64,000 bases of DNA. Source: an uncultured Acidobacteriota bacterium. GTDB taxonomy: Bacteria; Acidobacteriota; Thermoanaerobaculia; Multivoradales; SZUA-115. Under the pieces are notes generated by a model, which was not told the DNA's origin, made no database searches, and saw only the letters and a list, made by a program, of their open reading frames with translations. The position numbers and the translations under genes are program-made. This document shows positions 9,224 through 56,127 of this stretch, piece after piece (position 1 is the first letter of the stretch; each line of letters starts with the position of its first letter). The stretch spans positions 96,001 to 160,000 of the forward strand of contig CAWDVR010000002.1 of NCBI GenBank assembly GCA_963805975.1, in the 5' to 3' direction.

Positions 9224-9410
9224 GGGCCCTCCGCTGAATCGATCCTAGCAGTATTCCGCCAGCCCTCTTCGTGCTGGGTTGGCAACCTTCGAGCACGCAC
9301 ACTTTCTGCTAGCCTCTGAGAAAGCAATTTCGACCATCCAAGATGCAGCCTGCCCCCTCGCCAGCGACGCTCTGGAACTGACCGGCATTGCCGTGGAGGT
9401 ATCTAGATCC

Positions 9411-13769: not shown

Positions 13770-13797
13770 CACCCCCGAAGCGACGGCGGTGGTGTCT
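13770..13797 (+). promoter_or_regulatory. Candidate ECF-type promoter CACCCCC-N15-GTGTCT
   Basis: Intergenic, upstream of the 13889 gene; mirrors the 7795-7823 motif. Confidence 0.33.
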
Positions 13798-21798: not shown

Positions 21799-24493
21799 CG
21801 CGCGCAGATCCTCGGAGACTCGCCCGGTGGCTCTTGGTTTCGATCCATCGTGCTTGCGGATCTCCGGCGAGGGTGTAGCCCGCCCAATAGAAAGGCGCGG
21901 CGAAGCGTTCCTGGGCGAGCAGCGACAGCTGCGCTCCGCGAAGCGCCTCCGCCACCGGCGCGCCCGCTTTCAGGCGGCGATAGAAAGCGGTCATGAGCTC
22001 CGCAGAAGCAACATCGTCAACGCTCCAGAGGGTCGAGATCACGCCCGGACTGCCGGCGTAGAGGAAGGCGCGTGTCAGGCCCACGATCTCGTCACCGCCG
22101 CTGTGCTCACCCAAAGCTGTTTCACAGGCGGAGAGGACAACCAGGTTGACGCCCGTCAGGTCGAGCTCGGAGTAGATCTCGTGTACCTCCAGGTTGCCGT
22201 CGTCTTTGCCGTCCCTGGAAGGAGAAAGTGCCAGGCGGCTGAACCCCGCGCTCCGCGGAAAGTAGAGGCCGTGCGCCGCGACATGGACGATGTCGACCTC
22301 GCCCTCCAGCTCTTTGAGCGCCGACTCGCTGGCGGCCATGCCGAGCAAGGGTTCGGTGCCCAGAAGCTCTGCCACCTCCTCGGCCTCGCGGCGGCTTCCC
22401 GCCAGCGGCGGCAACTCGGGGTCGGCAGGGATGGGCTCTCCGAGCACCAAGGCGCGGCCGGTGAATGGAGACTCCTTGTGGCGGAGGTACTGGAGAACGC
22501 TGGCGCTCGGGGCGTAGGTGAGCGTGAAGTCCTCGATCAGATAGCGGCCGGTGGCCGGATCCCGCAGCGCGGCGAAGGGAACGTAGTGCAGGACGCCGTG
22601 GGGAATGAGGATCAGCTTGGAGCTGTGCAGATGAGGCCGTAGCGGTGCAATGAGCTGTTGATAAAGACCCTCCGCATTCTGGTCCGCGGTGCTGCAGCCG
22701 GCGAGCGGCTCGCTGCCTCGAACGCTGTGCCTCACCGCGTCGGAGAAGCACAGCGGAGTGGAGACTTCGCCCTCGAACGGCGGCAGAGAGAACCAGCTGA
22801 AGGTGTCACGGTCGATCACCCAGGCATGGATGCGGAAATCCGTGACGAAGAAGCTGATCAGGGTGACACCCGGCTCGAGCGCGGCCTGCACTTGGGCCGC
22901 TTCCACAGGATGGGCCTTGACCACGGAGGCGAGCTCTGGGTCCAGGGCCACGGTTCGAGCACGCAGGCCTTCGTGGAGCTGGCGCAACTGGAGCAGCGTC
23001 GACTCCATGGCCCGTCGTTCGTCACCGATCGCCAAGGCCATCTGCCGCTCGGTTACAACGATGCGTGCGGCGAGCTGGTCCAGGTCCCGAGAGAATGAGC
23101 TCGCGTGGGAGCGTTGCTGCACGGGACGGGTGTTGCCCAGCGCCTGGAGCAGGGCTCGGGCCTTGGCCAGCTCGGCGACGGCGAAAGCCTCCCTCGTGCG
23201 CAGCTCCAGGCTCAACATCTCGAGCAGCGCGTGGTAGAAGAGACGCGTGACCCCACCACGGTAGGCCTGAATCGATTCCTGCCGCTGATTCAAGTCTCCA
23301 GCCACCTCGAAGCAGGCGACGGCGGAGGCCGCGCGCTCGATCGCTTCGTCGAACCGACCCTGCAGCCAAAGAGCAGCGCTCAGGCCGGAGAGGTGAATCC
23401 CGGCGAGCTGCGCGTCGCCCACTCGGAGCTCTTCCGCCAGCGCGATCTCCCAGGCCCGAATGGCTCCTGTACGGTCGCCCAGATGGTAGAGGATGGGAGC
23501 CCAAATCCCGGTGCGCCATGCCTTCGTGCGGTGGAACTGGCCCAGGCCGACCGCCAGCGTTTGGTCGCCGTTGGCGCAACGGCTCGCGCCTGGAATTCCT
23601 CCTGCGCTTTGCCGCAGAGTACCCGGCGCAGCTTGGGGGCCTTGTCGTTGCAACGAGCGATGGATTCCAGCAAAGTCCATCCTGAGCTTCTGCTTCTCGC
23701 CGAGCCATATCTGAAACGAGCCCAGCTTGCGGATGGCCTCGGCCGTCGTCGTTGCAAAAGGCAGATGATGCTCGTCGAGCATGCGCTCGAGCTCCCTGGC
23801 CGCACTCGAGCTGCCCCTTCCTGGGCCGAGCATGCTGTAGACAGAGGGCAGGAGCGTCGTCGCGGTCCATTCGGTCAGCGTGGCTATCAGCTGTTCGAGC
23901 AGGGCGCTCTGAGGCTCCCTGGCCAACATTCGTGATTGTTCGAGGTAGGCAATACCTTCCTCGTATCGCCCGTCCAAGGCCAGAATAAGACCCCGTTGGG
24001 CTTGCGCCACCGCGGTCATGGCTCGGTTGTTGCTACGCTCGGCAGCGGACATAATTTCTTCGTTGGTTTCGAGCGCGGCGTCAGGATATCCGAAGGCCAG
24101 TAGCAGCCTGGAGCGATGCATGAGAACGCTGGGGTAGGCCCAGGGGTGGAACGAGAGGCGGGCGAAGAGCAAGGCACGGTCGTTCTTCTCCAGGGCCGCG
24201 CTCGGGTTGCCGCGCATGGTTTCGAGCTCGGCGCTCCAGAGCAGCCGCGTCGTCTCCATCATGCTCAGGAAACGGTACCCGTATGCAGACTCCGCAGGGA
24301 TCACCAGCTCTTCGTCAGCGCCGTGATGCCATAGGCCGCGCATCGCCAGTCTGACGGACGCCGCCATCAGGGCGAGCTGCGCCAATGTCGCGCCGACGAG
24401 CAGTCCCGACAGCAAGACCTGGCGTAGCGGGTGGCTCCGTGGGCGGACGCTGCCGAGAGCTTTCGGCTCCTCGCTTCGAGGTCCCACTCTCAC
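21776..24493 (-). CDS. Exported TPR-CHAT protease (paralog of 19240-21798)
   Basis: N-terminal TM; ELAKAR; dyad DIVHVAAHG...LVVLSACET; PFYWAGYTLAG; GTGA overlap with the upstream gene. Confidence 0.88.
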   Translation of the reverse strand: MRVGPRSEEPKALGSVRPRSHPLRQVLLSGLLVGATLAQLALMAASVRLAMRGLWHHGADEELVIPAESAYGYRFLSMMETTRLLWSAELETMRGNPSAALEKNDRALLFARLSFHPWAYPSVLMHRSRLLLAFGYPDAALETNEEIMSAAERSNNRAMTAVAQAQRGLILALDGRYEEGIAYLEQSRMLAREPQSALLEQLIATLTEWTATTLLPSVYSMLGPGRGSSSAARELERMLDEHHLPFATTTAEAIRKLGSFQIWLGEKQKLRMDFAGIHRSLQRQGPQAAPGTLRQSAGGIPGASRCANGDQTLAVGLGQFHRTKAWRTGIWAPILYHLGDRTGAIRAWEIALAEELRVGDAQLAGIHLSGLSAALWLQGRFDEAIERAASAVACFEVAGDLNQRQESIQAYRGGVTRLFYHALLEMLSLELRTREAFAVAELAKARALLQALGNTRPVQQRSHASSFSRDLDQLAARIVVTERQMALAIGDERRAMESTLLQLRQLHEGLRARTVALDPELASVVKAHPVEAAQVQAALEPGVTLISFFVTDFRIHAWVIDRDTFSWFSLPPFEGEVSTPLCFSDAVRHSVRGSEPLAGCSTADQNAEGLYQQLIAPLRPHLHSSKLILIPHGVLHYVPFAALRDPATGRYLIEDFTLTYAPSASVLQYLRHKESPFTGRALVLGEPIPADPELPPLAGSRREAEEVAELLGTEPLLGMAASESALKELEGEVDIVHVAAHGLYFPRSAGFSRLALSPSRDGKDDGNLEVHEIYSELDLTGVNLVVLSACETALGEHSGGDEIVGLTRAFLYAGSPGVISTLWSVDDVASAELMTAFYRRLKAGAPVAEALRGAQLSLLAQERFAAPFYWAGYTLAGDPQARWIETKSHRASLRGSARDDHTPLE

Positions 24494-25194
24494 CCCACGT
24501 ACAGCGGCTGCTCGCGGCTGCTCTGGAAGCGGCCGAGGCGATCCTCGAACAGCGCTTCGATGGAGTAGGTGCCCGAGGGGGCCTTGGCCGGTATCGTGAC
24601 TTCCGAGCGCGTCTCGACGATGCCGCCGCCGCGCGGCACCACGAAGCTGTCGGGCCCGAGGGCATTCATGTACTGGCCGCCGTATTTGATGCCCGTGAAG
24701 GCTTCGATCTTGAGGTCTTCCTCGCGGTTCGGCCCGATCACCAGGTAGCGCACGTAGACCTTGGCCGTGCCGCCGGGTGCGACCCGGGCCGGCTCGAAGC
24801 GCACCTCCTCGACCGCGAGGATGTAGCCCTGGGAAGAGTCGTAGCTCAGGCGGGCCATGGCCTCGTCACGGCTGCCGTAGAGCATGTCCTGCCGGCGCCC
24901 GATGAGATATCCGGCGACCCCGCCGACCACGGCACCGGCGACCGCGCCCTTGACCGGGTCGTGCCCGAGAATGCGCGCCCGCAAGAGGCCACCGGCTGCC
25001 CCGAGCACCGCACCGGTGATGGCGGCCTTCTTCCGGCGCGGCTGCTGCCGCAGCCACGACTTGAGGGGATGGCTGGGCGCGCCGCTGGTTGCGCCCACCG
25101 TGCGGGGAACGCTGCCGCCGCCCGCAAGCGGCGAAGAGGCGCAGCCGGAGAGCTGGAGAGCACAAAGCAGGAGAGCGGTGATCCATTTCTTCAT
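24490..25194 (-). CDS. Glycine-zipper lipoprotein
   Basis: Lipobox MKKWITALLLCALQLSGC; GAVLGAAGG...GAVAGAVVGGVAGYLIG; Ig-like C-terminus. Confidence 0.82.
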   Translation of the reverse strand: MKKWITALLLCALQLSGCASSPLAGGGSVPRTVGATSGAPSHPLKSWLRQQPRRKKAAITGAVLGAAGGLLRARILGHDPVKGAVAGAVVGGVAGYLIGRRQDMLYGSRDEAMARLSYDSSQGYILAVEEVRFEPARVAPGGTAKVYVRYLVIGPNREEDLKIEAFTGIKYGGQYMNALGPDSFVVPRGGGIVETRSEVTIPAKAPSGTYSIEALFEDRLGRFQSSREQPLYVG

Positions 25195-25208
25195 GGGAAA
25201 CCTCGCTT

Positions 25209-26888
25209 TCAACGGTCGTCGTCATCGTCACGGTCGATTTCGGTCTGCTTCTTGCGCCGGGGATTGAGCAAGGTCGCATCGGTCTTGCTGCCGGCGCCCT
25301 GCCAGAGCTGTTTCATTCCCTCCTCCGCCGTGGCCACGAGCTCGCGCGCCCGCGCGGCGACGTCTGCGGGAGCCCCGGCCTCGGCGGCGAGTCGTTGCGC
25401 GAGCTGCTTGGCTTCGGGGTAGCTCGCGGCGGAGAGCAGCGCGTCGATCTCCGTCAGCCGGCGCTCCCAGGCTTGGCGCTCGGCCTGGGCTGCCGCCTGA
25501 GCCACCGACTGGGCATGCTGGGCGGCGGTGCGGCGCTCGATCTCTTGCTCGGTGATGCGGTTGCTGAGGAGCGACAGCGTGGCCATCTCGTCCACCAGGT
25601 CGGTGCGGTGCTGGTACGAGCGGTTCAACAGCTCCTGCACCTTCTGCCGGGCTTCCTCGAGCCGGCCTTCGTCACACCAGCGCTCCGCCTGGGCCGTACC
25701 CGCTGCGAGCTCGGCACGCAAACGCACCAGCGCTTGCTCGCGGATCGCCTGCGTCGGATCGGGACGAGGCGGCTCGCGATCGCGCCGCACGGGCGGCGGT
25801 GGCGGCTCGGGATGGGGTGCAGCGGGTGCCTGGATCGGTGCCGGGGGAGGTTCGACGATCACGTACTGGTTTGAGATGGTCGGCGATGGCGGATCTCGCT
25901 GCTGCCACCCGTCGAGCAGCTTCCCGAGTAGCGTCAGGGTCGTCAGGGCCAGGATGACGGCCCCCCAGACCGTCCGCGCTCTTCTAGGGCGGACATTCGG
26001 CTGCCCCCTGTCCCCGACCCGGTTGCCGGCGCTGCGCGCGTGCTCTCTCGGCAGCGCCGCCGGCTCGACAGCATGGAGCGCACGCTCGAACGCCGCGGCG
26101 CTCGAGAAACGCTCGCGCGGCTCCTTGCGCAGCGCCTTCGACAGAGCTGCGCAGACCACCGAGCTGGCGGCGAGCGTGCTCAGAACTTGTTCCGCCGGCC
26201 GCTCCAGATGCAGGCGCTGGATCTCGTAGTCGCTCTTGCCGTCGAACGGCGGCCGGCCCGCCAGCAGCTCGAAGAGCAGCACGCCGGCGCTGTAGATGTC
26301 GCTGCGATGGTCCAGGCTCTGCGGGCTCTTGATCTGCTCCGGGGACATGTAGACCGGGGTACCCACGGTCTGTGAGGTCTTGGTACGCCGCTCCTCGCCC
26401 ACCCGTAGCGCAATGCCGAAGTCGGTGAGCTTCGCCACTCCGGTGGCGCTCACCAGCACGTTGCCGGGCTTGACGTCCCGGTGGATGATGCCTTGCGAGT
26501 GCGCGTAGTCGAGGGCCGAGAGCACCTGCCCCAGGATGCGCAGTGCCTGGTCTTCCGGCAGGCCCCGGCCGCCCCGCTCCCGCAGCAGCTCCTCGAGACT
26601 GCGGCTGCCGAACAGCTCCATCACCAGGTACGCGACGCCCGCGACCTCGAGCACGTCGTGGACGGCGACGATGTGCGGATGCTGGAGCCGCGCCTGCGCC
26701 CGGGCTTCGGCGGCGAAGCGCTCGCGCAGCTCGCCGTCGCGGGTCAGCTCGAAAGGCAGAGCCTTGATCGCCACCTCGCGATGCAGCCGGTCGTCCACCG
26801 CGCGGTAGACGACTCCCATGCCGCCGCGGCCCAGCAGGCCGAGCACCCGGTAGGGGCCCAGCAGCGCGGGCAGAGGTGCGGGTGCCAT
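25209..26888 (-). CDS. Hanks-type Ser/Thr protein kinase with TM segment and helical extracytoplasmic domain
   Basis: LGRGGMGVVY, VAIK, HRDVKPGN, DFG, GTPVYMSPEQ, SDIYSAG; TM WGAVILALTTLTLLG. Confidence 0.95.
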   Translation of the reverse strand: MAPAPLPALLGPYRVLGLLGRGGMGVVYRAVDDRLHREVAIKALPFELTRDGELRERFAAEARAQARLQHPHIVAVHDVLEVAGVAYLVMELFGSRSLEELLRERGGRGLPEDQALRILGQVLSALDYAHSQGIIHRDVKPGNVLVSATGVAKLTDFGIALRVGEERRTKTSQTVGTPVYMSPEQIKSPQSLDHRSDIYSAGVLLFELLAGRPPFDGKSDYEIQRLHLERPAEQVLSTLAASSVVCAALSKALRKEPRERFSSAAAFERALHAVEPAALPREHARSAGNRVGDRGQPNVRPRRARTVWGAVILALTTLTLLGKLLDGWQQRDPPSPTISNQYVIVEPPPAPIQAPAAPHPEPPPPPVRRDREPPRPDPTQAIREQALVRLRAELAAGTAQAERWCDEGRLEEARQKVQELLNRSYQHRTDLVDEMATLSLLSNRITEQEIERRTAAQHAQSVAQAAAQAERQAWERRLTEIDALLSAASYPEAKQLAQRLAAEAGAPADVAARARELVATAEEGMKQLWQGAGSKTDATLLNPRRKKQTEIDRDDDDDR

Positions 26889-26890
26889 CG

Positions 26891-28252
26891 TCAAGGCTCC
26901 GCCGGCACCGGTGCGGGAGAGGACACGCCCGCACGGGCCAGAAAGCTCCGGATGGCACCCAAGGCGACCGCCTCGACGGTGCCGGCTCCATAGTCTTTCG
27001 TCGCCACCGATCGACCGGCCAGCGAGATCGTCCTCGCCGCCGCCAACCGGCTGCGCGTGAGGCCCACCAGCTCGCCACGCCGGTTGACCACCGGGCCACC
27101 CCCGCCGGCCACGGCAAAGGAGCGGTCGAGGGTCATTCCTACGGGCTGGCCGCCGGCATCCCGATCGAGGCGTGCCACGAAGGCCTTGATGAAGAGCGGG
27201 TCCGCCAGCGGGCCCGCGCGGGTGCCTGTCGGGCGCATGCCGGCGGCGCTCAGCAGAGGCTCGGCAACGGTCGATGGATACAGCAGGAGGCCCACGTCCT
27301 GCGCCACTTCGAGCGGCTCGCCGGCCGCCGCGACGGCAAGCGGGGTCGTCAGGCGCAACGGGATCTGCAGCAGCGCCAGATCGGCGTTGCTGGCGAGGGC
27401 ATAGACCGTGGCGGGAACCGGCTCCTGGCCCGGGAGCTGCACGGAGAGCGTATCGATGGCGGCCTTGAGCTTGCCGGAACCGGTGAGATCTTCCAGGGGA
27501 TGGCCGATGGCTTCACGCCAGGGTCGCGCCAGGTGAGCCGACGTCAGCACCAGGGTGGGCGCAATCAGCACGCCCGAGCCCCAGGCGGTCCCATTCTGGA
27601 TCGAGCCCGAGCCCGGCGTGACGAGGCTGTAGCGGCTCTCCACGCGTGCCACGGCGGCGCGAGCACGCCCTTCCACCTCCGTCCAGGCCGGTGCCGCGCC
27701 GCGCCCGAGTGACTGCACGCTCGCTCTCTGCGCTGTGCGCTCGGAAGCCCAGAAGCCGATCAGGCCGAGCGCACCGAGCAGCAGGAGCAGCCCGGTCGAG
27801 CCGGCGAGCAACGCTCGGTGCCGCGCTCGACGCCGGCGCGCCTGGTCGTCGTCGCTCAGGGCACCGCGCAGCTCCGCGCGCAGGGTCTCGCGACCGATCG
27901 CCGGCTTGGCGGCAACCTCGCCGGACATCAGCAGCACGCGCAGCTCCGGGCCACCGGCGGCAAGGCGAATGCGTGAGCCCTCCGGCACCGCCAGGCGCTC
28001 GAGAGGCGGGCACTTGGCTCCGTTCAAGAAGGTGCCGTTCGAGCTTTGCTGGTCTTCGAGCCAGAGCCGGCCTTGCTGGTAGAGCAAGCGCGCATGGAGC
28101 CCGCTCACCAGATCGTCCGCGAGGTCGTGAAACTTCACGTCGCAAGTGGCATTGCGGCCCAGCGTGAGGCTCTGCCCCTCGGCGAGCTTGAGTCGTTGAC
28201 TGTGGCTGGCGAGGGATCCGGATTGATGCCGGAGTTCGATCTCGACACTCAC
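26891..28252 (-). CDS. FHA domain - TM - trypsin-like domain (catalytic Ser absent)
   Basis: FHA LGRNATCDV...VSGLHA...SSNGTFLNG; TM; trypsin-like GSGVLI..VLTSAHL, DLALL, AGGGGPVVNRRGELVG; AAGGAG RBS and GTGA overlap. Confidence 0.85.
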   Translation of the reverse strand: MSVEIELRHQSGSLASHSQRLKLAEGQSLTLGRNATCDVKFHDLADDLVSGLHARLLYQQGRLWLEDQQSSNGTFLNGAKCPPLERLAVPEGSRIRLAAGGPELRVLLMSGEVAAKPAIGRETLRAELRGALSDDDQARRRRARHRALLAGSTGLLLLLGALGLIGFWASERTAQRASVQSLGRGAAPAWTEVEGRARAAVARVESRYSLVTPGSGSIQNGTAWGSGVLIAPTLVLTSAHLARPWREAIGHPLEDLTGSGKLKAAIDTLSVQLPGQEPVPATVYALASNADLALLQIPLRLTTPLAVAAAGEPLEVAQDVGLLLYPSTVAEPLLSAAGMRPTGTRAGPLADPLFIKAFVARLDRDAGGQPVGMTLDRSFAVAGGGGPVVNRRGELVGLTRSRLAAARTISLAGRSVATKDYGAGTVEAVALGAIRSFLARAGVSSPAPVPAEP

Positions 28253-29010
28253 TTGAGATCTCCTTGATCGGTCGGTTTGCGCCCACCGGATGGCATCGGC
28301 GGCAGTACCAGCAACACCAGCTCGGTGGAGCCACAACGGATCCAGTCCCGGTCCATGAGCTCGACCTGGTTGCCGGCGCCGAGTTCCTCGCCGTTGATCC
28401 AGGTGCCGTTGGTTGACATGCGGTCCGAGAGGTAGAAGCGTCCGTTGCGCGCCAGCAGCAAGGCGTGCTCGCTCGAAACCCGCGCGTCTTCGCGCAGGCA
28501 GATGTCGTTGGCGGGATGGGCGCCCAGAAAACTCTTGCCCTGCCGCACGCCGAAGAGGGCGCCGCCAGGTTTCAGCGCCGGAGCGGCCAGCACCGCCACC
28601 AGCTCACGCGCCGGCTCGCCCGCGACGGCTCTCGGGGCGACGGGATCGAGGCGCGTCGGCGGGCCGCCGGCACGAGCCTCTGCGAGAACCGGTGGAGCCG
28701 GGGCTTCCCGTGGCTCCGGCTCCACGCTACCGAGCCGGGTGCGACGGCCGGCTCCCGGCGGGGCCACCTCGAGACGTGTGCCGCGGGCCTCGGCGGCACC
28801 GGCGGCATGTTCCAGGCGCGTGTGCGCGGGGGCGGCCGGCGGCGCGGCTCCCAGGAGCGCGCAGTAGGGACAGGTCGCCCAGCTCGGATCGATGGGATGC
28901 CCGTTGGCACAGATCGGCTCGCCCGCATCCGCCACCAGGCTCGTGCCGCAGGACAAGCAGGCTCGCTCGCTCGCCGGGTTGAGCGTCTGGCAACGCGGGC
29001 AGCGGTTCAC
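28249..29010 (-). CDS. Zinc-ribbon + FHA domain protein
   Basis: CPRC..CLSC, CANGH..CPYC; FHA VSSEHA...MSTNGTWING. Confidence 0.88.
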   Translation of the reverse strand: MNRCPRCQTLNPASERACLSCGTSLVADAGEPICANGHPIDPSWATCPYCALLGAAPPAAPAHTRLEHAAGAAEARGTRLEVAPPGAGRRTRLGSVEPEPREAPAPPVLAEARAGGPPTRLDPVAPRAVAGEPARELVAVLAAPALKPGGALFGVRQGKSFLGAHPANDICLREDARVSSEHALLLARNGRFYLSDRMSTNGTWINGEELGAGNQVELMDRDWIRCGSTELVLLVLPPMPSGGRKPTDQGDLK

Positions 29011-29840
29011 GATCCCCTCCGCGCCACCGCCGCCGGCCGGGTCGGTCGCAGGGCTGTACCCAGAGGCGCCTCGGTCAGCCGCAGACAGATCACCGAGATG
29101 TTGTCGTCGCTCGCGGCGGCGAGCGCGGCCTCGACCAGGCGCGCGCAGATCTGCGCTGCCGTGCCGCCGGTGTTGGCCAGCCGCGTCATCTCGGCATCCG
29201 TCAGGCTGCCGTGCAGCCCGTCGCTGGTGAGCAGCAGCAGATCACCGGCGTCGAGCGGCAGCGGCAGGTGCACTTCCGGCTCGAAGGGCGCCTCCTGGCC
29301 GACGGCGCGCTGGAGCACGTTGCGCTCGGGGTGGGAGAAGGCTTCGTGCTCGGAGAGGTGGCCGTCGCGCACCAGCTGCTCCACCAGGGAGTGGTCGGCT
29401 GTCAGCCGCAGGAGCGACCGGCCCCGCAGCAGATAGGCCCGGCTGTCTCCCGCGTGCGCCAGGTGCAGGATCGCCCCCGCACGGCCGTTCTCGATCACGG
29501 CGACGAGGCCGGTGGCGCCCATGCCCGCCTGCGCCCGCACCCGCGCGGCCTCGCGCACTGCATCGTGAGCGGCGGTGAGGGCCTGCGCCAGTGCCGCCGC
29601 CCACGGCTCGGAGCCGTCGCTCGCCCGCAGCCGCTCACCGATGGTCCGCACCACGATCTCGGCGGCGTCGCGGCCGGCTTCGTGTCCACCCATGCCGTCG
29701 GAGACGACGCCCACCACCTGTCCCGCGTCGCCGACCAGAACCAGCGCGGCATCCTCGTTCTCCGTTCGCACGGGACCACAGATCGAGATCACGGCGGCAT
29801 CGATGTCAGAGCGGCCGGGCAGCTGAAGTTCGGTCGACAC
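29007..29840 (-). CDS. PP2C-family Ser/Thr phosphatase
   Basis: RTENED, SDGMGGH, AHAGDSRAY, DHS, RNVLQRAVG, LTSDGL, DNIS; exact start uncertain. Confidence 0.95.
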   Translation of the reverse strand: MSTELQLPGRSDIDAAVISICGPVRTENEDAALVLVGDAGQVVGVVSDGMGGHEAGRDAAEIVVRTIGERLRASDGSEPWAAALAQALTAAHDAVREAARVRAQAGMGATGLVAVIENGRAGAILHLAHAGDSRAYLLRGRSLLRLTADHSLVEQLVRDGHLSEHEAFSHPERNVLQRAVGQEAPFEPEVHLPLPLDAGDLLLLTSDGLHGSLTDAEMTRLANTGGTAAQICARLVEAALAAASDDNISVICLRLTEAPLGTALRPTRPAAVARRGS

Positions 29841-29861
29841 GGTGGTGTTCTCGCCCCCTAG

Positions 29862-29888
29862 AGACACCAACGGACACACCTTGTTGCC
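29862..29888 (-). promoter_or_regulatory. ECF-type promoter GGCAACAA-N13-GTGTCT facing the PP2C-kinase-CHAT-caspase operon
   Basis: Minus strand reads GGCAACAAggtgtgtccgttgGTGTCT; identical elements and spacing in two other intergenic positions. Confidence 0.7.
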
Positions 29889-29899
29889 ACGCGCGCCGG

Positions 29900-29926
29900 G
29901 GCAACAAAGAGAGCGATGGCGTGTCT
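29900..29926 (+). promoter_or_regulatory. ECF-type promoter GGCAACAA-N13-GTGTCT facing the vWA-tubulin-GTPase operon
   Basis: GGCAACAAagagagcgatggcGTGTCT, then GGAGG RBS at 29936 and GTG at 29947. Confidence 0.72.
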
Positions 29927-29946
29927 ATCGGCCGCGGAGGAGATCC

Positions 29947-32118
29947 GTGAGACGACGCGACGTTCGGGAAGCTCTGATGGCGCTGGCGCTCGCGATCTGC
30001 ACGGGCCCGCTGGTGGCGCAAGGCAGCGCCGAGGCCGATGTCGTGGTGGTGGTGGACACCTCGACCAGCATGCAGCAAGAAGGTATGGACCCGGAGCGCA
30101 GCTCGCTGCTGGTCACCAAGCTCTTGGCGGACATTTCCCCGGGAAGCCTGGCTGTCGTGCGGCTGCTCGACTTGCAGGCCGACGCCAATCTCCTTCCATC
30201 GCGCGACACCGGTACGTTCGTGCCGTGCTCGGAGGACCCCTCCCGGTCATGTCGGCACGTTGAGGCCGCGTCGGACTGGGAGGCCGACGCGCGCCGCCAG
30301 ACGTTCGGTGCCCTGCTGCGACCGGCACGCGGTGACGGCGCTTACAAGAAAGATCTCGAAGCTCACCTCGAACAGCGCAGCAACAACAGCCCGTTCAATC
30401 TCGCGCTGCGCTCGGCCCAGGGTGTTCTCGACCAGCGGCGCCAGACCCGTGCCGCCGAGGCCGCGGTGCCGCAGACCGTCATCTGGTTGTCCGATGGCCG
30501 ATCGGACAACCCGACGACGCTGCCGCCCGTCGTCGCCGAGCTGAAGCAGCAGAAGGTGGCCCTCGAAGCGATCGTCTTCGGGCGCGGTGAAACTCACCTG
30601 TCGCTACAGCTCGGTCTCGACCCCCATCAGGTGAAGACTCCGGCCGAGCTGATGAGGGCTTTCGCCAGCGCCTTCCGCCGCATCGTCCAGGCGCCCTACG
30701 AGATCGACGCCCTGCTGTCGTCGTCCCCCTCGTTCGAGATGAAGCAAGCCGTGGACGAGGCATGGATCGTGGTGTACGGCGACGACACCTTGAGGCAGGC
30801 CGAGGTCGAAGGGCCGGCGGGAGTGGTGCCGGCCGATTACGCCGCCGACCGCTGGGCCGGGGCCGGGGCTTACCGCGTGGTCCACCTCACCCGGCCCGCC
30901 GCGGGGCGCTGGACCATCCGCGCCACCGGCGGCGGCGCCGGCACGGCCTATGCGGTGGTGCAACGCTCGGCGCTCACCCCCATCTTCCTGGGGCCGGAAC
31001 AGGTCCTTTCCGGCACCGCCACCCTGTTTCAGGGAGCGATCCGCGCCGGCAGCTCGACCGAGCCGATCAGCGATCCGGCGATCCTGAAAGAAGCCGAGCT
31101 CACCCTCGAAGCCCTGGGCTCGGGTCCGGGGACGACCGTCCGGCTCCACGACGATGGCCGGGATGGCGACGCGCAAGCCGGCGACGGCCGCTTCTCCGGT
31201 TTCGGCACTCTCCACGGCTTCGGCCCGCAGCCCGCTCGACTGCACCTGGCAACGCCGCTGGTCGACCGTTCGGTGGAGGCCACGATCCAGGTGGCGGGAC
31301 GCTTCGCCACCACGGGTGAGCCGGTCGAGGTCGACCTCGGCCGCTTGGGGGTCGCCACCGAGGTCTGCAAGCCGCTGCGCTTCGCCGTGGAGCACGAGGG
31401 GCAAGTACCGCTCACGCTCGCGCAGCTCGCCGCATCGCCCGTCGATCACCAGCTCTCGCTGCGCACGCCGCGGGGCCGGATCGAGGTCGGAGGCGATGCG
31501 CAGCTCGCCACTCCCGAGGACACCTTCGAAGTTTGCCTCGCCACCGGCCCCCGAGTTACCTCCTCGCGGGCTCAGGGCGAGCCTTGGCTGGTGCTCGGTG
31601 TGGCCTCGTCCGAGGACCCGCTCCAGCGCCAGGTGGTACGACTGCGCTGGCAGGTCGAAGGCCTGGGCTTCTGGGCCCGCTGGGGCTGGCTGATCCTGTT
31701 GATGCTGGCGGCCATCGCGGTTGCGATCGTGGTCGCGGGGTACATCGTGCCCGAACGTTTCCAGCCCTCGCTGGCGCTGGTCTTCACGTCCGACCGCGAG
31801 GACCTCGAGGAGCAGAGCCCGCAGCCGATCAAGCAGTGGCGCGGCGTGGGAATCGGCTTTTATCGCCATGCGCGCGCTTACCTGCATGCGGACTTTCGGC
31901 TCTCGGGCAACCCCGGCGGCTCGGTCGCAACCCTCGCGGCAGTCGCCCGAGGCACGCGCGTCTTCCCCGGCAAGGGCGCGAGCCTCTATCGCGAAGGGCT
32001 GGACGGCACCTTCGAGCCGGTGAGCCCGGAAGGCCACGCCGCCCATCAGGGCGACGTCTTTCGCGTCGGGGAACGAGGGCCGTTCTTCCGCCTCACCTCG
32101 CGCCGGGCAAGAGCGTGA
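29947..32118 (+). CDS. Membrane-anchored vWA-domain protein with choice-of-anchor-X-like motif
   Basis: Signal peptide; MIDAS VVDTSTSM and WLSDG; LHDDGRDGDAQAGDGRFSG; C-terminal TM plus tail. Confidence 0.85.
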   Translation: MRRRDVREALMALALAICTGPLVAQGSAEADVVVVVDTSTSMQQEGMDPERSSLLVTKLLADISPGSLAVVRLLDLQADANLLPSRDTGTFVPCSEDPSRSCRHVEAASDWEADARRQTFGALLRPARGDGAYKKDLEAHLEQRSNNSPFNLALRSAQGVLDQRRQTRAAEAAVPQTVIWLSDGRSDNPTTLPPVVAELKQQKVALEAIVFGRGETHLSLQLGLDPHQVKTPAELMRAFASAFRRIVQAPYEIDALLSSSPSFEMKQAVDEAWIVVYGDDTLRQAEVEGPAGVVPADYAADRWAGAGAYRVVHLTRPAAGRWTIRATGGGAGTAYAVVQRSALTPIFLGPEQVLSGTATLFQGAIRAGSSTEPISDPAILKEAELTLEALGSGPGTTVRLHDDGRDGDAQAGDGRFSGFGTLHGFGPQPARLHLATPLVDRSVEATIQVAGRFATTGEPVEVDLGRLGVATEVCKPLRFAVEHEGQVPLTLAQLAASPVDHQLSLRTPRGRIEVGGDAQLATPEDTFEVCLATGPRVTSSRAQGEPWLVLGVASSEDPLQRQVVRLRWQVEGLGFWARWGWLILLMLAAIAVAIVVAGYIVPERFQPSLALVFTSDREDLEEQSPQPIKQWRGVGIGFYRHARAYLHADFRLSGNPGGSVATLAAVARGTRVFPGKGASLYREGLDGTFEPVSPEGHAAHQGDVFRVGERGPFFRLTSRRARA

Positions 32119-34421
32119 AGACCTGGTGGCAGAGCCTTCGCCTCCTGGCGTGCTGCGCGGTGGCGGTCGCGGCCGGCCTGCCGGCGGCGGGCAGCCAGCA
32201 CGTGCGGGTGGTGCTCGACACCTCCGGCTCGATGGCGACCAACGACCCGCCGCGCCTGACGATCCTCGCCACGCTCTTGCTCCACGACCTGGCCGATCTC
32301 GGGCGCAATCTGGGTGACAGCTTCGAGGTGCTGCCCTTCGATCCGACGGCGGAGTGGCGGGACCCCGCCGCCGCGCCGCCGCTCGCGGTCGGCCCGCGGG
32401 TGCGGGCGCGCTTCGGCGCCCGGGACGCGCTGGTCGCCGAGATTTCGTCTCTGCAGTACAACGCCCGCAACACCTACTTCTATCCTGGCCTCCGGGCGGC
32501 CATCACCGATCTCGAGCAAGGCACCAGCCGTGACGTGCGCGCGCTGGTGCTGGTGACCGACGGCGTGCCGGTGGAGGCGACCCGCGAAGCGGAGCTCGCC
32601 CTCATCCAGCGTGAGCTCCTGCCGCGTCTCCAGACGGGGGGCATCCGGCTCTACGTGCTGGCCTTCGGCCCCGAGGCCACGACCCACCGCGCTTTTTTCG
32701 AGTCTCTGCTGGGCGGCCACGGGCAACGCGCTCCCGGCCAGCTGTTCGTCGATCGTGACGGCAGCGAGCTGCTGGCCACGATGAGCGAGATCTTCGCCCA
32801 GGGCTTCGGCTACACTCGCTCCCATCCCCAGGCGCTCGCCGGCGGCTCCGATCTCGACCTCGAAGGCGGCGGCAAGGCCCAGCGCTCGGCCGTGGTGGTG
32901 TCGTCGCCGCACGGAGGCGCGATCCCGAGCCTCAACCTCGTGCCACCGGCCGGCGGCAGCGTCAACGCTCCCGGGGGCGTCGTGGGCGCGGCCACCAACG
33001 GCGCGAGCTACGCGCTGACCTGGGCGCTCTCTCCCCATCCCGGGCGCTACCGCGCCAGCTCCAGTGCCGCCGCTGCTCGCGTCGTGGTGTTGCGCCCCAG
33101 CCGTCTGGCGCTCGAAGTGCAGAGCTCGACGCCGTCCACCCAGGCGCGACAGGTGATGGCCCGCACGCCGGTGCCCTGGCTGGTCGTGGCCCGGCCCGAG
33201 GGCGGCACGGGAGATCCCGGGCCGGTGAATATTTCATTTCGCACCCACGGGCCGCGCCGTACTCAGCCCGGGCCGGATGCGAGCCTCTACGAATGGTCGA
33301 GCGAGGCCGGCGCTCCGGCGGCAGGCTCTGACCAGTCATTGCCCGAAGGGCGGTCGTTTCCGGTCGAGGTGTCGTTTCCGCGCGACCCCCAGGAGGGAGA
33401 GGCCTCGTACCGCGGCTATCTCGAAGTCGAAGCCTGGCGGGGCGAGGCACGGGTCGGCGGCCTCACCGGCGAGAAGGCTTACCCGGTCGATGTCTTCCCG
33501 TTCCTGGACATCACGCCGTCACCGCTGGCCGGCGATGCGTTGCCGGCGGGCGACCGCAAGCGCCGGCCGCGGGCGCTGCGCAGCGGCGAGCGCGGCTGCG
33601 CCCTCTTTCATCTGCGCCTCACTTCCGGGCGCCTGCCTCATCTCAAGCAGCCGCGCTATTCGCTGCGGGCGACGCTCGACCGCTCGACCCAGGCGTTCCA
33701 AGGCGAGCTTGCCGGTGCCCTGGTGACGCTCGACGGCAAGTCCCTGGGGGTCGAAGGCCAAGCGAGCGCAGTCCCCTACCCCTGGCAGCTCGGCCAAGAG
33801 CTGAGCCAGGCCGACCTCCTGGGCGAGCACGCGATCTGTCTACAGGTGGGGCGGCCCAAAGCCGGCGACCCGGACAAGGCCCTGGAGCTGCCGCTTCGCC
33901 TGACCCTGCTCGAGAGCCCCTACGACAGCGCGCCGGTGATCGAGCCCTTCACGTTCCGGGTATGGATCAGCCCGCCGACTTTAGTCGAGCGCATCGGCCC
34001 CTGGCTCGGCCTGGCTTTCGCCGTGCTCTGCGGCGTGCTCGGCCTGGCGATCCTGCGCTGGCGATCCTCTTTGCCCCAGGACCTCGCTTACGCGCTGCAG
34101 CGCGACGAGCCGGGCGGTTCCTTGCCGCAGGCCACCTGGGCGGAGCTCACCTTCGAACGCCCGCCAGGGCTGGCGCGTTGGCTGGGGCTGGCGCCCGCCC
34201 TGCCGGTGCTGGCACTGGGCGAAGGCCGCCCGCTCGCCTGGGTGCGGCCGGCCAAGGTCGAGCTGTTCCATCTGCAACCGGCCGACGGAGTTCGGGTCGA
34301 GGACCCTACCGGCCAGGCGCTCGCCACGGCTCGCGGCGGCCGCTACACGCTCGAGGTCCACCGCGGCTACCGCCTGCTGGCCGGCGGCGAGCGCTACCTG
34401 CTGCGCCTGGAGTACCGGTGA
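32115..34421 (+). CDS. Membrane-anchored vWA-domain protein
   Basis: GTGA overlap; signal peptide; VLDTSGSM, LVTDG, LYVLAFG; C-terminal TM. Confidence 0.85.
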   Translation: MKTWWQSLRLLACCAVAVAAGLPAAGSQHVRVVLDTSGSMATNDPPRLTILATLLLHDLADLGRNLGDSFEVLPFDPTAEWRDPAAAPPLAVGPRVRARFGARDALVAEISSLQYNARNTYFYPGLRAAITDLEQGTSRDVRALVLVTDGVPVEATREAELALIQRELLPRLQTGGIRLYVLAFGPEATTHRAFFESLLGGHGQRAPGQLFVDRDGSELLATMSEIFAQGFGYTRSHPQALAGGSDLDLEGGGKAQRSAVVVSSPHGGAIPSLNLVPPAGGSVNAPGGVVGAATNGASYALTWALSPHPGRYRASSSAAAARVVVLRPSRLALEVQSSTPSTQARQVMARTPVPWLVVARPEGGTGDPGPVNISFRTHGPRRTQPGPDASLYEWSSEAGAPAAGSDQSLPEGRSFPVEVSFPRDPQEGEASYRGYLEVEAWRGEARVGGLTGEKAYPVDVFPFLDITPSPLAGDALPAGDRKRRPRALRSGERGCALFHLRLTSGRLPHLKQPRYSLRATLDRSTQAFQGELAGALVTLDGKSLGVEGQASAVPYPWQLGQELSQADLLGEHAICLQVGRPKAGDPDKALELPLRLTLLESPYDSAPVIEPFTFRVWISPPTLVERIGPWLGLAFAVLCGVLGLAILRWRSSLPQDLAYALQRDEPGGSLPQATWAELTFERPPGLARWLGLAPALPVLALGEGRPLAWVRPAKVELFHLQPADGVRVEDPTGQALATARGGRYTLEVHRGYRLLAGGERYLLRLEYR

Positions 34422-36772
34422 GGGCTGCCACGACGGCCGCCGTGGCCGCTTTGCTCGCGGCGGGCGGGGCATGCCCGCTGCTCGCGGCCGGTGGCACGGG
34501 CCCCAAGAGCGTCGCTCTGGTGCTCGACACTTCGCGCTCGATGATCGAGAACGACCCGCAGCGCTACACCTCGGAGATCAGTCAGATCGTCTCCGACCTG
34601 CTGTCCGACGGCGACGAGCTCACCGTGGTGCGCATGCCCAAGGACGGTTTCTTCTACACCCCGGATTGCTCGGAAGGCGTCACGCCGGCCCTCGCCCGCA
34701 CCTCCGCCGGCGCGGATCGCCTCGGCTTCAAGCGCAGCCTCGACGCGCTGGTGCGCTACGACACCGGCACTTTCTTCGCCGCCCCCATCCGGACCGCGAT
34801 CGCCGCGCTACGCCGGCACCCCGACCGACCGCGCCTGTTGCTGGTCGTGGCGGATTCCGGCGGCCTCGGCGACTGCGAGACCGCGCTGACGAGAGAGCTC
34901 TCGGCCCTTGAGCGCGACGGCGCAACGCTCGCCGCCATCAACCTCGGCGGTGATGCGGGTGCCTTCGACCGCAATCCCGCTTTCGGGCTCACCGCCTCGG
35001 CGCGCGACGCCGAAGAGCTGATCGCCGCCGTGGCGCGGGTCTACCAGCGCTTTCTGGGCGGCCGGCAGGTGGCGACCGGCAACGCGCGCGGCAAAGTGCA
35101 GGTGGAGATCGCGCCGGCGGTCCGCGAAGCCTTCCTGGTCTTTGCCGCCGACGGCCCGCTGGGCGTGGTCTCCGAGGCCGCGGGCAATCCTGGCGCCCAC
35201 ACCGTCGATCTCGACTTTCGCGGCGGCGGCGGGGCTCAAGGCCTCGACGGCCGCCAGCGCGAGTACCGCATCGTTCGCCTCCAGCGGCCCAACGCCGGCC
35301 GCTGGACCTTCGAGGCCAGCGGGCTCACCTCCCAGGCCGGCTGGATGCTGATCCAGGACTCGGCGGTCGGAGTGCGCCTGGTCTCCTCGCCCACCGTGAC
35401 CGCCGGGATGGCGGCGACGATTGAGGCCCAGCTGGTGGACGAGGAGACCGGAGCGGCCATCACGGACTCCTCGTTTCTGCAAGGGCTGGGGATGACCGCG
35501 CAGATCGAAGGCCGCAACGTCACCCTGCGCGACGACGGCCAGGGCGGCGATCGGCTCGCCGGCGACGGGATCTTTTCCACCGCCGTCGAGATGAACCGGC
35601 TCGGGCAGCACGAGATCCCGGTGCACTTGGCGAGCTCGCTCCTCGATCGCGACCGCACTCTCGGGCTCGAAGTCGCGGCCAGCAGCTGGGAGCTGCGGGT
35701 GAGCTCTCCCGCTGTCGCCGAAGCCGGCAGCCCGGTCGAGCTGGCGGTCGAAACCGTGCCGATCGGCCGAGCCGAAGCTCTCAAGGCTCCGGAGCGGATC
35801 GACGTGACCGCCGCCGGCCAGGTGGTTCAGCTGACCAGCAGCCCGGCCCGGAAGGGCCTCTATACCGGGTCCTGGGTACCGGCCGAGCCGGGCACCGTGA
35901 CGCTCGAGTACCAGCCGGTCGGCGGCTCCGCGGCCCTGCCGGTCAGCGCCACCATGACCGTCAACAGCGTCTTGAAACTGGGCCCGGCCCAGCCCGTCAC
36001 GCTCGTGCCGGTGCAGGCGCACGGGGAGGCCACGGGCGAGCTCGCGCTCGCCCGTGCGACCGTACACGGCACCTTCGTGCTCGAAGCCAGCAGCGACTTC
36101 GCTCGCCGGCGCGCCCTGCTGGAGATCGATCCGGGCAGCGGCTGGGTCGCTCTGGGCGCGACGCCGGTGCCGCTCGAACTCGGCTCCGGCCGCCCGGCGA
36201 TCTGGCGCCTGCGGCTGCGCGCCGCGGCCTGCCCCGAGCCGGCGAGCGCCGGCGACCCCTTCGTCATCCACCTCGTGCAGCGGGGCGGCAGCGCCCGGCT
36301 CTCGATCCCGCTCGCGGTGGTGATCGAGCCCGAGCCGTGGTGGATCTGCTGGTGGCCCGTGCTGGCGCTGGCGCTGGCAGGCCTGGCGGCGGCGGTGGTG
36401 ATCCACGGCTTCGTCTCACCGTCTCGTTTCGCGCCACGCCTGGGCGTCCTGCTGTCGCCGGAGCTCGACCTGGGAGAAGGCTTCTTCCATCCCATCCGCG
36501 GCACTCGCGGCAGCGGCAGCGGTTTTTACCGTGACGCCACGGTCTTCGTCTGCGGCGACTACCGGCTGTCGGGTCGGACCGACGGCGCCGTGGCGCGGCT
36601 GCGGGCCGACGGTCGCGGCGTGCGCATCCGCACCGTGCCAGGAGCCACCCTGCTGCGCCAGAACGCCGACGGCGGCTGGGAGGCGTTGCCGGAGGAAGAA
36701 ACCAGCCTGCGGCTGGGCGCGCTCTACCGCAACGATCTCGCCACTCTCTTCTTCGAGGTTCGCCATGGCTGA
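34418..36772 (+). CDS. Membrane-anchored vWA-domain protein (paralog of 29947-32118)
   Basis: GTGA overlap; VLDTSRSM; LRDDGQGGDRLAGDGIFS; TM; tail GSGFYRDA..DYRLSG similar to GIGFYRHA..DFRLSG. Confidence 0.85.
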   Translation: MRAATTAAVAALLAAGGACPLLAAGGTGPKSVALVLDTSRSMIENDPQRYTSEISQIVSDLLSDGDELTVVRMPKDGFFYTPDCSEGVTPALARTSAGADRLGFKRSLDALVRYDTGTFFAAPIRTAIAALRRHPDRPRLLLVVADSGGLGDCETALTRELSALERDGATLAAINLGGDAGAFDRNPAFGLTASARDAEELIAAVARVYQRFLGGRQVATGNARGKVQVEIAPAVREAFLVFAADGPLGVVSEAAGNPGAHTVDLDFRGGGGAQGLDGRQREYRIVRLQRPNAGRWTFEASGLTSQAGWMLIQDSAVGVRLVSSPTVTAGMAATIEAQLVDEETGAAITDSSFLQGLGMTAQIEGRNVTLRDDGQGGDRLAGDGIFSTAVEMNRLGQHEIPVHLASSLLDRDRTLGLEVAASSWELRVSSPAVAEAGSPVELAVETVPIGRAEALKAPERIDVTAAGQVVQLTSSPARKGLYTGSWVPAEPGTVTLEYQPVGGSAALPVSATMTVNSVLKLGPAQPVTLVPVQAHGEATGELALARATVHGTFVLEASSDFARRRALLEIDPGSGWVALGATPVPLELGSGRPAIWRLRLRAAACPEPASAGDPFVIHLVQRGGSARLSIPLAVVIEPEPWWICWWPVLALALAGLAAAVVIHGFVSPSRFAPRLGVLLSPELDLGEGFFHPIRGTRGSGSGFYRDATVFVCGDYRLSGRTDGAVARLRADGRGVRIRTVPGATLLRQNADGGWEALPEEETSLRLGALYRNDLATLFFEVRHG

Positions 36773-36789
36773 CCGTCAAGGAGCTCACC

Positions 36790-39700
36790 ATGTCTGAGGA
36801 ATACCGCGCTGGACAGAGCACCATCACGCCAACCCTTGTCGTGGGCCTGGGTGGCACCGGCTCCGACATCGTCGACCGCATCGCCGGCCGCGCCGCCACC
36901 CTGCCCAACTGGGAAAGCCAGCTGCGCCCCTTGACCTCGTTCGTGGCCATCGACACCAACGAGCTCGATCAGCACGGCCTCGCTCACATCCCCGACGGCA
37001 ACCGCTTGAACATCGCCGCCTTCGACAAGGCGCGCGTGATCGATCACTTCCGCCGCTCGCAGAACCAGCAGGCCCTGCAATGGCTGGACCGCGCCTATCA
37101 ACCCCGCCCCGGCTTCAAGCCGGGCGCCGGCCAGATCCGCGTCGAATCGCGCCTGGGCTTCTTCTTCCATTCGCCGGAGATCCGCCAGCGCCTGCGCTCG
37201 CTGGTGCGCGAAACCCTCCGGCCCGGCATCGTGTGGCGCCAGGCCACGCCTCCGAAGTACAACGTCTACGTTTTCACGACGCTGGCCGGCGGCACCGGCT
37301 CGGGCTGCTTTCTCTCCGCCGCGTATCTGATCGAGGCGGTGATCCGCGAGCAGGAGTGGCAGCCGCGGATCGTCGCCAACCTGCTCTTGTCCACCTTGAT
37401 GCAGGACAAGGTCGGCCCCGAGCTCCACCCCGACATCCACGCCAATACCTATGCCGCCTTGAAGGAACTCGAGCACCTGACCAAGCTCGACTACCCGCAG
37501 GTGCGGCGCGAAGGCCGCACCGCGGAGGACTTCGTCTACTGCCGCGACGAGACTTCGCAGCAGATCCTCCAGGTCGGGAGCCGGCCGTTCTTCCTGAGCT
37601 TCCTGTTCGATCGCCCGTCGCATCTCGGCCTGCCCGAGGCCAAGCACGCCATCGCCGATGCCGCGTTCCTACAGATCTTCACGCCGATCATCGACAACCT
37701 GGCCGGCGAGCTCGACAACTACGAGAAGCACCTCGAGTCGCTCACCCTGTTCCCGGGCGAGCTCAAAAACGTCGGTCTGGGCTACACCAAGAACTTCGGC
37801 GCCTTCGGGGCGGTCGCCCTGGCGCTGCCCGGCCGCGACCTGCTCGAGTACTGCGCCCTGCGCTTCGCCGCCCAGGCGATGCGCAGCCAGATCACCTTCG
37901 GGGTCGACCCGAACGATCCGACCGACGATCGCGCCCGCGCCCTGGCACGCCTGGCGGTCAACTACGCGGACCCCAAGTTCCTCAACCTGGCGGACGCCGA
38001 GCGGGAGCGCGAGATCAACCGCGCCTTCGTCGCCTCGGTGCAGGAGATGGCACGCCAGGACGCGGTCGACGACATGACGCGTGGCTTCTGGTATCAGCTC
38101 GTCGCGAGCATCGACGAGGGGCCGCTCACCGGCACCGACCCGGACGGCAAGCCGATCCACGGGGAGTCGCTGGTCGCCGTGGTCGAGCGCCAGCTCGACG
38201 AGGCCCGCCGGCCGCTGCTCAACAAGGTCTCGATCAAGGAGCGCGCCTTTGCTTTTCACAAAGAGGGCGTGAGCCAGTACAACGAGCTGGTGAGCCGCCT
38301 GAAGGAAGACATCCGCAATGCCCGGGTGATCGTCGACGAAGGCTGCCGGGGCCTGGTGGCGAGCGCCGAGGAGGGCGAGGTGATCGCCGGGCTGAAGCTC
38401 GACCCGATCGCCGAGCGCTACCTCGCGCTGCGCAAGCTGGCGCATCTCGAAACCGAAGTCTTGCCCAAGGCGGAGCAGGAGCTGAGCAGCGCTCAAGTGC
38501 TGGAGCTCAACAACCCTGCGGTGCAGAAGCGCTTCGAGGAGCTGTACCAGAAGCTGCAAGACGAGGCGCGCGCGCGGCGCTGGCCCAATCGCGATCAGAG
38601 CTTTCTCGACGCCCGCAGCGAAGCCGAGGAGTACTACGGCAAGGTTGCGAAAGCGGCGCGCCGCATCCTCGACCTCGAAGTGCGCCTCCGGCAGCTGCGC
38701 GCGCTCACCGACTATCTGCGGCGCCGGGCCCGGCAGTATGCCCGCCTGGCCAACCGCATGAACGGCCTGGTGCAGGACCTGGAAGCCGACGCCGAGCGGC
38801 TGCGCCGGGGCGAGGTGGCGATCGAGCTGCCGCTGGCGCTCAAGGTGGAAGTCTTCGAAACCTTGGACGAGCCGCGGCGCCGCATCTGGGACCGCGTCTA
38901 CAACGCCCTGTTCCTCGACGGCGGCCGCTACCTCGCCACCTTCGATCGCCAGCTGCTGGCCGAAACCGTGGCGCGCGAGCTCAAGCCGGTCGTCGGCGCC
39001 GACGGCCGGGTGAGTGACAAGACCGTCGACCAGACCGTCACCGACCTGCGCCGCGCGCTCTGCCGACTCGGCCGCGAACGGCTGCGGCCGGCGATCCTGG
39101 GCGATGCGGACGCCACCGGGCTCGACCTCGAAACCGGCCTGGCGCTCGAGGCGCGCTTGATGCTGGCGCCGATGAAACGCCCGGGCGAAACCGTGACGCC
39201 GGAGGAGATCGAGGAGTACCGCGAGAAGAAGTTCCGCGCCCTGGCGCAGCTCGCCGGCGTGCTCGCCCGGGTGAGCGCGGCGGATGCCAAGGCGCTCGAC
39301 GACGGGGTCAAGACCAACCGCACCCGGCAGCTGATCCTGGGGCACTCCGGCGCGCGCGCCGAGTCGGTCGACGGCCGCTTCGTCGATCGCCTGAAGAGTG
39401 TGCTCTCTGCCGGCGGCCACCAGGTCGAGAAGGACTACTGGCACAACCCGCGGCTCGCCATCGTGCACGACGTCGAGCTGCCGATCCCGCTGTACTACTT
39501 CCAGCCAGTGGTGGGCGAGATCGAAGAGGCGTATTTGAAGATCGCCGCCGAGGAGCGCCGCGGCTACAACCTGCACACCGACTTCAACTGGGAAAAGTCG
39601 CTGCCCAACCTGAACCCGCGGCGCTCGGAGCTGACGGTGGGCTGGTCGCTCAGCCAGCTGGCCGAGGGCCTGGTGAGCCGCATCATCCTCTTCCGCGACG

Positions 39701-40080: not shown

Positions 40081-40084
40081 AGCG

Positions 40085-45420: not shown

Positions 45421-45436
45421 GGAACCGAGGCCCCTC

Positions 45437-53365: not shown

Positions 53366-53370
53366 GACGT

Positions 53371-54468: not shown

Positions 54469-54478
54469 AGGATCTCCC

Positions 54479-56092: not shown

Positions 56093-56127
56093 GCTGCAGG
56101 TCTCCATGTGCCACGGTCGCACCGGAT

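Follow-up and report, generated by a model that had tools for sequence, protein, structure and literature searches.

Three identical predicted ECF promoters head the operons of a tubulin, vWA and CHAT gene island in an uncultured Acidobacteriota bacterium

The window analysed here, a stretch of 64,000 nucleotides from the genome of an uncultured Acidobacteriota bacterium, contains a gene island in which two operons diverge from a gap of 106 nt between their first codons and a third converges on the second. A gene for an ECF sigma factor lies to the left of these operons, and three exact copies of one short element precede them:

7833-8642, minus strand: predicted single-pass anti-sigma factor of 269 aa, with one hydrophobic stretch and a weak zf-HC2 match below cut-off
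8666-9223, minus strand: ECF sigma factor of 185 aa, with regions 2 and 4 only (Pfam)
15836-29840, minus strand: operon A (Pfam), with intergenic gaps of at most 14 nt
29862-29888, minus strand: PA, predicted ECF promoter heading operon A
29900-29926, plus strand: PB, predicted ECF promoter heading operon B, with GGAGGA at 29936-29941 before GTG 29947
29947-49622, plus strand: operon B (Pfam), gene order conserved in genomes G131, G183, G231 and G277
49656-56107, minus strand: operon C, converging on operon B, conserved in G131 and G183 and partly in G277
56128-56154, minus strand: PC, third exact copy, heading operon C

Operon A encodes a PP2C phosphatase, a zinc-ribbon-FHA protein, an FHA-trypsin protein, a Ser/Thr kinase, a glycine-zipper protein, two CHAT proteins and a caspase (C14), and three more CHAT genes accompany the sigma and predicted anti-sigma genes on the left side of the window. 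Operon B encodes three vWA proteins, a Tubulin_2 protein (36790-40080; Pfam E 3.6e-45), unknown proteins, an MZB-domain protein and a double-GTPase-like protein. The DxSxS motif of the vWA is intact (DTSTS), and the Pfam matches for the second vWA, the third vWA and DO-GTPase2 lie below cut-off. One operon B protein (42541-45420, plus strand) carries a C-terminal MrfA-type zinc-binding domain, with no helicase domain detected. Operon C encodes a predicted membrane protein, a P-loop protein (Walker A-like GGKGVGKS) and two proteins with no Pfam match above cut-off. No GAP1 domain was matched by Pfam at E 0.05 in the scanned proteins of operons B and C. The sigma factor is small, has regions 2 and 4 only and lies next to the predicted anti-sigma gene, as is typical of ECF sigma factors, and its recognition helix, KSLRHDA, is of the His-Asp type. 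The predicted anti-sigma factor accompanies the sigma factor in relatives and has no CHAT match.

PA reads GGCAACAA-N13-GTGTCT, and PB has identical boxes on the other strand. A preliminary description of this DNA had noted two identical, back-to-back elements at these positions, in a gap of about 106 bp and some 20 nt before the start codons; both copies were recovered, and the box-to-start distances are 21 nt for PA (GTG 29840, minus strand) and 20 nt for PB (GTG 29947, plus strand). It had missed PC, which lies 20 nt before ATG 56107 (minus strand). A genome-wide motif scan, which the same description had proposed as a check, returned exactly three copies in the whole 5.36-Mb genome, each before the first gene of an operon, versus 0.006 expected from the observed counts of the 8-mer and the 6-mer in the genome. 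The same two boxes occurred nowhere in the 5.36 Mb at spacings of 5-25 nt other than 13, and 100 dinucleotide shuffles of the window gave no motif match. The 13-nt spacers of PA and PB are unrelated to each other, and beyond an 11-nt inverted arm over the -35 boxes no wider repeat was found between the two sides, so the boxes alone are common to both arms. No sigma-70 promoter-like site was found in 29700-30100. Two short boxes at a fixed spacing, a free spacer, an orientation towards operon starts from just upstream and rarity elsewhere are the marks of ECF promoters, and we consider it very probable that the trio are ECF promoters read by one sigma factor. Under the ECF geometry that we assume, with the start about 10 nt beyond the C of the -10 box, transcription is predicted to begin near 29853 from PA and near 29935 from PB, both about 3 nt further downstream than previously placed, and near 56119 from PC, with predicted 5' leaders of only about 12 nt.

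A single-copy DDE/DUF772 transposase ORF (56161-57657, minus strand) ends 7 nt upstream of PC. We considered whether PC is part of the end of this transposase and rejected the idea, as none of the terminal inverted repeats listed covers it and orthologs keep the box there: all five orthologs of the first gene of operon C with fetched upstream DNA carry GTGTCT 13 nt after an octamer with C at position 6.

The sigma family is present in 77 of 401 genomes of the class, and most of the related loci are titled Thermoanaerobaculia or Acidobacteriota. We surveyed 121 family sigmas in 113 regions, these being the top matches on larger contigs and not all matches, and took GTGTC(T/C) boxes 8-130 nt before gene starts from a crude in-house caller, blind to the -35 sequence. 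With no -35 selection, a C stands 16 nt upstream in 79% of 117 boxes, and this C is near-invariant in the boxes of the sigma family. Among non-self cassettes, the -35 pattern stands at N13 in 70 of 112 upstream GTGTC(T/C) boxes, versus 1-22 at spacings of 8-12 and 14-20; in 20 held-out cassettes, 10 of 14 boxes match at N13, versus 1-6 at other spacings. Among family sigmas, a box about 100-113 nt in front of the sigma gene is common, and the position of these boxes points to autoregulation. A broad matrix built from 15 non-self sites ranked the trio 3rd to 5th in the genome and exposed a further pair on contig C3. Its 84 genome-wide matches at N13 were no excess over the 57-113 at other spacings, so the predicted regulon is small. 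Genome G303 supplied one of the 15 training sites and also one negative vWA locus, and the family tallies count both G303 and G179, but none of the conclusions rests on these data. Two high-scoring matches outside islands lie before another ECF sigma gene (C5:529953-529979, plus strand) and before a 561-aa gene (C3:849190-849216, minus strand).

Conservation of the operons themselves is narrower. A full-length ortholog of the tubulin is present in 4 of 300 genomes of the class, and the sigma/CHAT cassette adjoins the vWA operon in three of these (G131, G183 and G231); it also adjoins vWA/tubulin operons in G302 and G309. A GTGTC(T/C) box placed N13 or N14 after such an octamer with C at position 6 precedes 15 of 35 vWA loci with upstream DNA, a tally in which one box falls within an upstream gene, some of the loci duplicate one another and several of the negative ones are internal to an operon. 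Counting the single C at different spacings before the vWA genes gave no discrimination (10 at N13 versus 12 at N17); this control was discarded, and only the listed boxes are used. The FHA-trypsin query gave no operon A ortholog across 400 other genomes, and among 299 other genomes of the order no relative of the window sigma exceeded 42% identity; a 56% relative, P0002, has the same recognition helix.

Back-to-back pairs recur in this set: two in a second island of this genome on contig C3, two in G277, and one each at loci L137 and L143, the boxes of the latter being identical. The second island (G000:C3:1-36000) again has sigma, anti-sigma, CHAT and caspase genes, and its pairs (10264/10268 and 27065/27078) use GGGTCT; it also encodes a 1626-aa protein with an N-terminal GGTG motif, read as tubulin-like from that motif only. 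One G277 island (C41:37000-85000) combines two classes of box, with four copies of TCACCC(G/A)A and five of CT(G/A)AACA(A/T), and one of its back-to-back pairs mixes the two. We had entertained a wholly genome-specific -35 box, an idea dropped and replaced because genomes carry two box classes. At L097, L118 and L136 there are 27-bp elements in which the -35 box is the reverse complement of the -10 box, and one such element could work in both directions.

The two box classes follow the sigma factor. Helix residues are numbered here by equivalence to E. coli RpoE, under an assumed alignment of the family helix. Lys or Arg occupies the position equivalent to 171 in nearly every family sigma, and octamer position 4 follows positions 175-176: it is C with Arg-Asp sigmas (C-type) and A with Gln sigmas (A-type). 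In the available part of Todor 2020 (Dataset S3; PMC7776599), Lys and Arg at 171 select C at -31 (0.98 and 0.88), which matches the near-invariant C of the family boxes. An unfiltered census of the classes was inflated by matches in the sigma's own codons (50 of 142 genes), and we recounted with matches inside sigma genes removed and background taken from four other spacings. The 41 Arg-acidic sigmas then have 64 C-type boxes (background 11.75) and 6 A-type (6.0), and the 61 Gln sigmas have 43 A-type (10.25) and 20 C-type (16.75); other non-acidic sigmas have 15 A-type against a background of 3.25. For the 10 His-acidic sigmas, the class of the window sigma, the counts are 8 C-type (2.0) and 4 A-type (1.75), with C-type boxes near 7 of the 10 cassettes and A-type near 3. 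Counted per sigma, C-type boxes go with 32 of 33 acidic sigmas versus 3 of 19 others, two of this genome's own sigmas included. The link rests on few independent changes, about 4 in the residue and 6 in the base (FastTree, tips with sites), so that Fisher P values exaggerate its strength and the helix residue may be a mere lineage marker; on the tree, the window's His-Asp sigma is placed among Gln-type relatives. The class matrices separate GGCAACAA by only 1.5 bits (6.5 versus 5.0). A further assignment test, the Ser172-to-G rule of Todor 2020, was dropped because it fails for most Ser172 members of the family.

The trio is A-type, and the window contains other boxes of both classes:

46-72, minus strand: C-type box CCCCACAA-N13-GTGTCT, toward a caspase-like gene just beyond the window
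7795-7822, minus strand: C-type box ACCCCCTG-N14-GTGTCT, 23 nt before the TPR-CHAT start at 7771
9630-9686, not assigned to one strand: two C-type boxes facing each other, with the palindrome GTGTCTATAGACAC in common, within the 5' region of the CHAT gene 9279-12674
13771-13797, plus strand: C-type box ACCCCCGA-N13-GTGTCT, before the gene at 13889
21816-21842, minus strand: possible but weak internal A-type box CGAAACCA-N13-GAGTCT, 17 nt ahead of the CHAT start at 21798; with 4 mismatches, it may be a chance match

The boxes segregate, with five C-type boxes at 0-14 kb around the sigma gene and the A-type trio at 30, 30 and 56 kb. The minus-strand box of the face-to-face pair, with N14, lies about 440 nt before the sigma gene, points at it and may serve as its autoregulatory promoter; within the window it is the one such C-type candidate, and no GGCAACAA-GTGTCT copy precedes the sigma gene. 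The face-to-face arrangement is repeated in the orthologous cassette of G505. Boxes at comparable positions within the CHAT gene occur in G131, G183, G231, G302 and G505, and transcription from such a box could yield a shortened protein without the signal peptide. A near promoter match at 9091-9117 (minus strand) is spelled by the sigma gene's own region-2 codons; a looser form of it is present in 50 of 142 family sigma genes, and it may be a coincidence or an internal promoter for the anti-sigma gene.

The preliminary description proposed that a single sigma factor fires both divergent operons and suggested 8666-9223. The first part is well supported by the comparisons above and extends to operon C. 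For the second, the family is right, but the genome has 39 sigma-region-2 matches, five of them CHAT-linked paralogs to which 8666-9223 belongs, and its helix type goes mostly with C-type boxes whereas the trio is A-type. In genome coordinates the window sigma is C2:104666-105223, and the other four paralogs are C3:7436-8005, C4:463401-464039, C2:1140865-1141497 and C2:9569-10099. Three paralogs with Gln176 are encoded elsewhere in the genome. We therefore favor, with a probability of roughly 0.48, the hypothesis that the trio are the -35/-10 promoters of a Gln-type CHAT-linked paralog encoded elsewhere, which would fire operons A, B and C together. The Gln paralog on C3 sits in the parallel island, with its own back-to-back pair of identical elements, CCCAACAA-N13-GGGTCT; that this island favors GGGTCT, not GTGTCT, speaks against reading in trans. 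The Gln paralog on C4 and the second one on C2 have no listed site upstream. Sigma 8666-9223, for its part, is the likely reader of the five C-type boxes that surround its gene. In the orthologous G505 cassette, which has a His-Glu sigma, C-type boxes stand at two equivalent places, one of them pointing at the sigma gene.

Alternatively, the island's own sigma 8666-9223 could read the trio as well, tolerating A or C, so that the whole island would be one regulon. We regard this as a tentative but substantial possibility, the Gln-type paralog being the slightly more likely reader. In the five genomes where the cassette adjoins vWA/tubulin operons (G131, G183, G231, G302 and G309), the box class fits the local sigma, and M. 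xanthus DdvS has four promoters at its own locus, according to the accessible text of PMC6061681. A-type boxes also lie near His-acidic sigmas in two genomes in which the search turned up no Gln paralog: G167 (98% complete) has just two AACA(A/T)-N13-GTGTCT sites, which stand back to back some 2 kb from a His-Glu sigma, and in G505 (90% complete), with one assembled family sigma, three CAACAA sites stand before genes. However, a tolerant sigma hardly explains three copies identical at 14 of 14 positions and set apart from five C-type boxes, and the His-acidic cassettes, as counted above, are mostly C-type.

The readings outside the CHAT-linked family are improbable even when taken together. 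With 39 region-2 matches in the genome, the reader could be an ECF sigma from outside the family, such as a conserved RpoE-like core-genome sigma; the ECF02, ECF21 and ECF51 motifs are similar in the available part of the PMC7826278 supplement, and GTACACTT-N13-GTGTCT lies upstream of another sigma gene, C5:530072. We consider this unlikely, since box class tracks the local family sigma, a core sigma that G505 also possesses is preceded by another candidate sequence, ending in CGTA, the C5 box was not seen before the G505 counterpart, and no box was found before the vWA gene in four loci of genomes without a family sigma match (one of them without upstream DNA). Promoter function is a prediction and a dimeric regulator could bind a spaced site, yet that the copies are sites for another protein, or relics of local duplication, is very unlikely, as each copy is asymmetric and aimed at a start codon 20-21 nt away across a free spacer of fixed length, the sequence follows sigma type in relatives, and the unrelated spacers argue against simple duplication.

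How might a Gln-type CHAT-linked paralog drive the three operons? By analogy with DdvS/DdvA, a membrane anti-sigma factor would hold the sigma factor until an outside signal arrives, probably relayed by neighboring TPR-CHAT/caspase proteases, and proteolysis of the anti-sigma factor would free it. The holoenzyme of the freed sigma would bind the shared -10 box GTGTCT and a paralog-specific -35 box 13 nt upstream, and operons A, B and C, about 40 kb, would be fired at once. Because just 11 nt separate the -35 ends of PA from those of PB, polymerases at the two promoters would crowd each other on their upstream sides, and may alternate or interfere. We take this 11-nt gap to resemble the lambda PR/PRM arrangement, and on that analogy partial interference between PA and PB is possible.

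Comparison with described systems brings out both kinship and difference. In the available text of PMC6061681 and PMC11506125, the DdvS/DdvA system of Myxococcus xanthus likewise combines an ECF sigma, a membrane anti-sigma, TPR-CHAT proteases and several promoters with the same motif at one island. The DdvS motif there is GTAA-n16-CGT, unlike the GGCAACAA-N13-GTGTCT elements here, and DdvA is fused to TPR-CHAT, whereas the 269-aa predicted anti-sigma of the window is separate from the CHAT genes. The targets also differ from those of DdvS, being operons of kinase, vWA, tubulin and GTPase genes, and here several paralogs occur together that differ in their -35 boxes. Predicted promoters listed in the accessible part of PMC7826278 (ECF02 GAACTTT/GTCT, ECF21 GCAACC/CGTCT, ECF30 TGCAACA/CGTC, ECF51 GCAACCG/GCGTGTC) share the AAC-type -35 and GTC(T)-type -10, but the gene contexts given there for ECF21 and ECF51 differ, and the string GTGTCT has no match in the available portion of its supplement. 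ECF54, as far as PMC7826278 and PMC8999054 could be consulted, also pairs an ECF sigma with CHAT/TPR neighbors and a proposed proteolytic control; it is reported there from Actinobacteria only and listed without an anti-sigma, whereas a predicted anti-sigma follows the sigma here. The literature searched, with most subscription journals outside its coverage, gave no account of the motif or of the sigma family.

For the targets, we equate Pfam Tubulin_2 with FtsZl1. A tubulin-like protein together with a vWA protein (DxSxS intact), a kinase and a P-loop GTPase (DO-GTPase2 below cut-off) gives the island the composition of an FtsZl1-vWA operon. In the available text, FtsZl1-vWA operons (PMC2875224), which operons B and C resemble, and tubulin-containing double-GTPase conflict systems (PMC7159879) likewise join tubulin-like and vWA proteins, kinases and a diverged P-loop GTPase. 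Unlike these, the island adds CHAT/caspase genes and a shared promoter; the operon B and C proteins scanned gave no GAP1 match. The function of the FtsZl1 tubulin-vWA module is only hypothesised in the consulted part of the 2010 paper (PMC2875224), and the word 'sigma', Greek-letter forms included, has no match in the main texts of PMC2875224 and PMC7159879.

The output of the regulon is likely a defence or conflict response, and we infer a defence role for the tubulin/vWA module. In G548 (L170, C1:1065001-1085000), C-type boxes precede the Cmr1, Cas10, Cmr3 and Cas6 genes, and the CRISPR locus adjoins a family sigma, a TPR-CHAT protein, a caspase and CHAT-SAVED. The presence of the motif on these type III-B CRISPR genes supports a defence role. 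Myxococcus DdvS likewise has its motif on type III-B CRISPR genes, and a family member that sits with such genes and with CHAT-SAVED is a further likeness to that system. The 1348-aa TPR-CHAT protein directly after the G548 sigma looks like an anti-sigma fusion, a DdvA-like arrangement that falls outside the taxa listed in the accessible text of PMC11506125.

ECF promoters and island regulons are already known, and the promoter type is ordinary. More speculatively, and rather doubtful as a whole, Thermoanaerobaculia-like Acidobacteriota might carry a bank of CHAT/caspase-gated ECF sigma paralogs with a common -10 box, their targets split by a single helix-set -35 base. One island would then have two independently switched halves, the paralogs would cross-wire defence islands in trans, and the FtsZl1 tubulin-vWA-GTPase machine would be an inducible immune effector interchangeable with type III CRISPR. 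The link between helix type and -35 base across the family offers a testable addition to the ECF specificity code, and the sigma paralogs are candidate orthogonal switches. In this organism, three operons of about 40 kb are tied into one predicted regulon, which provides a candidate switch for the FtsZl1 tubulin-vWA module.
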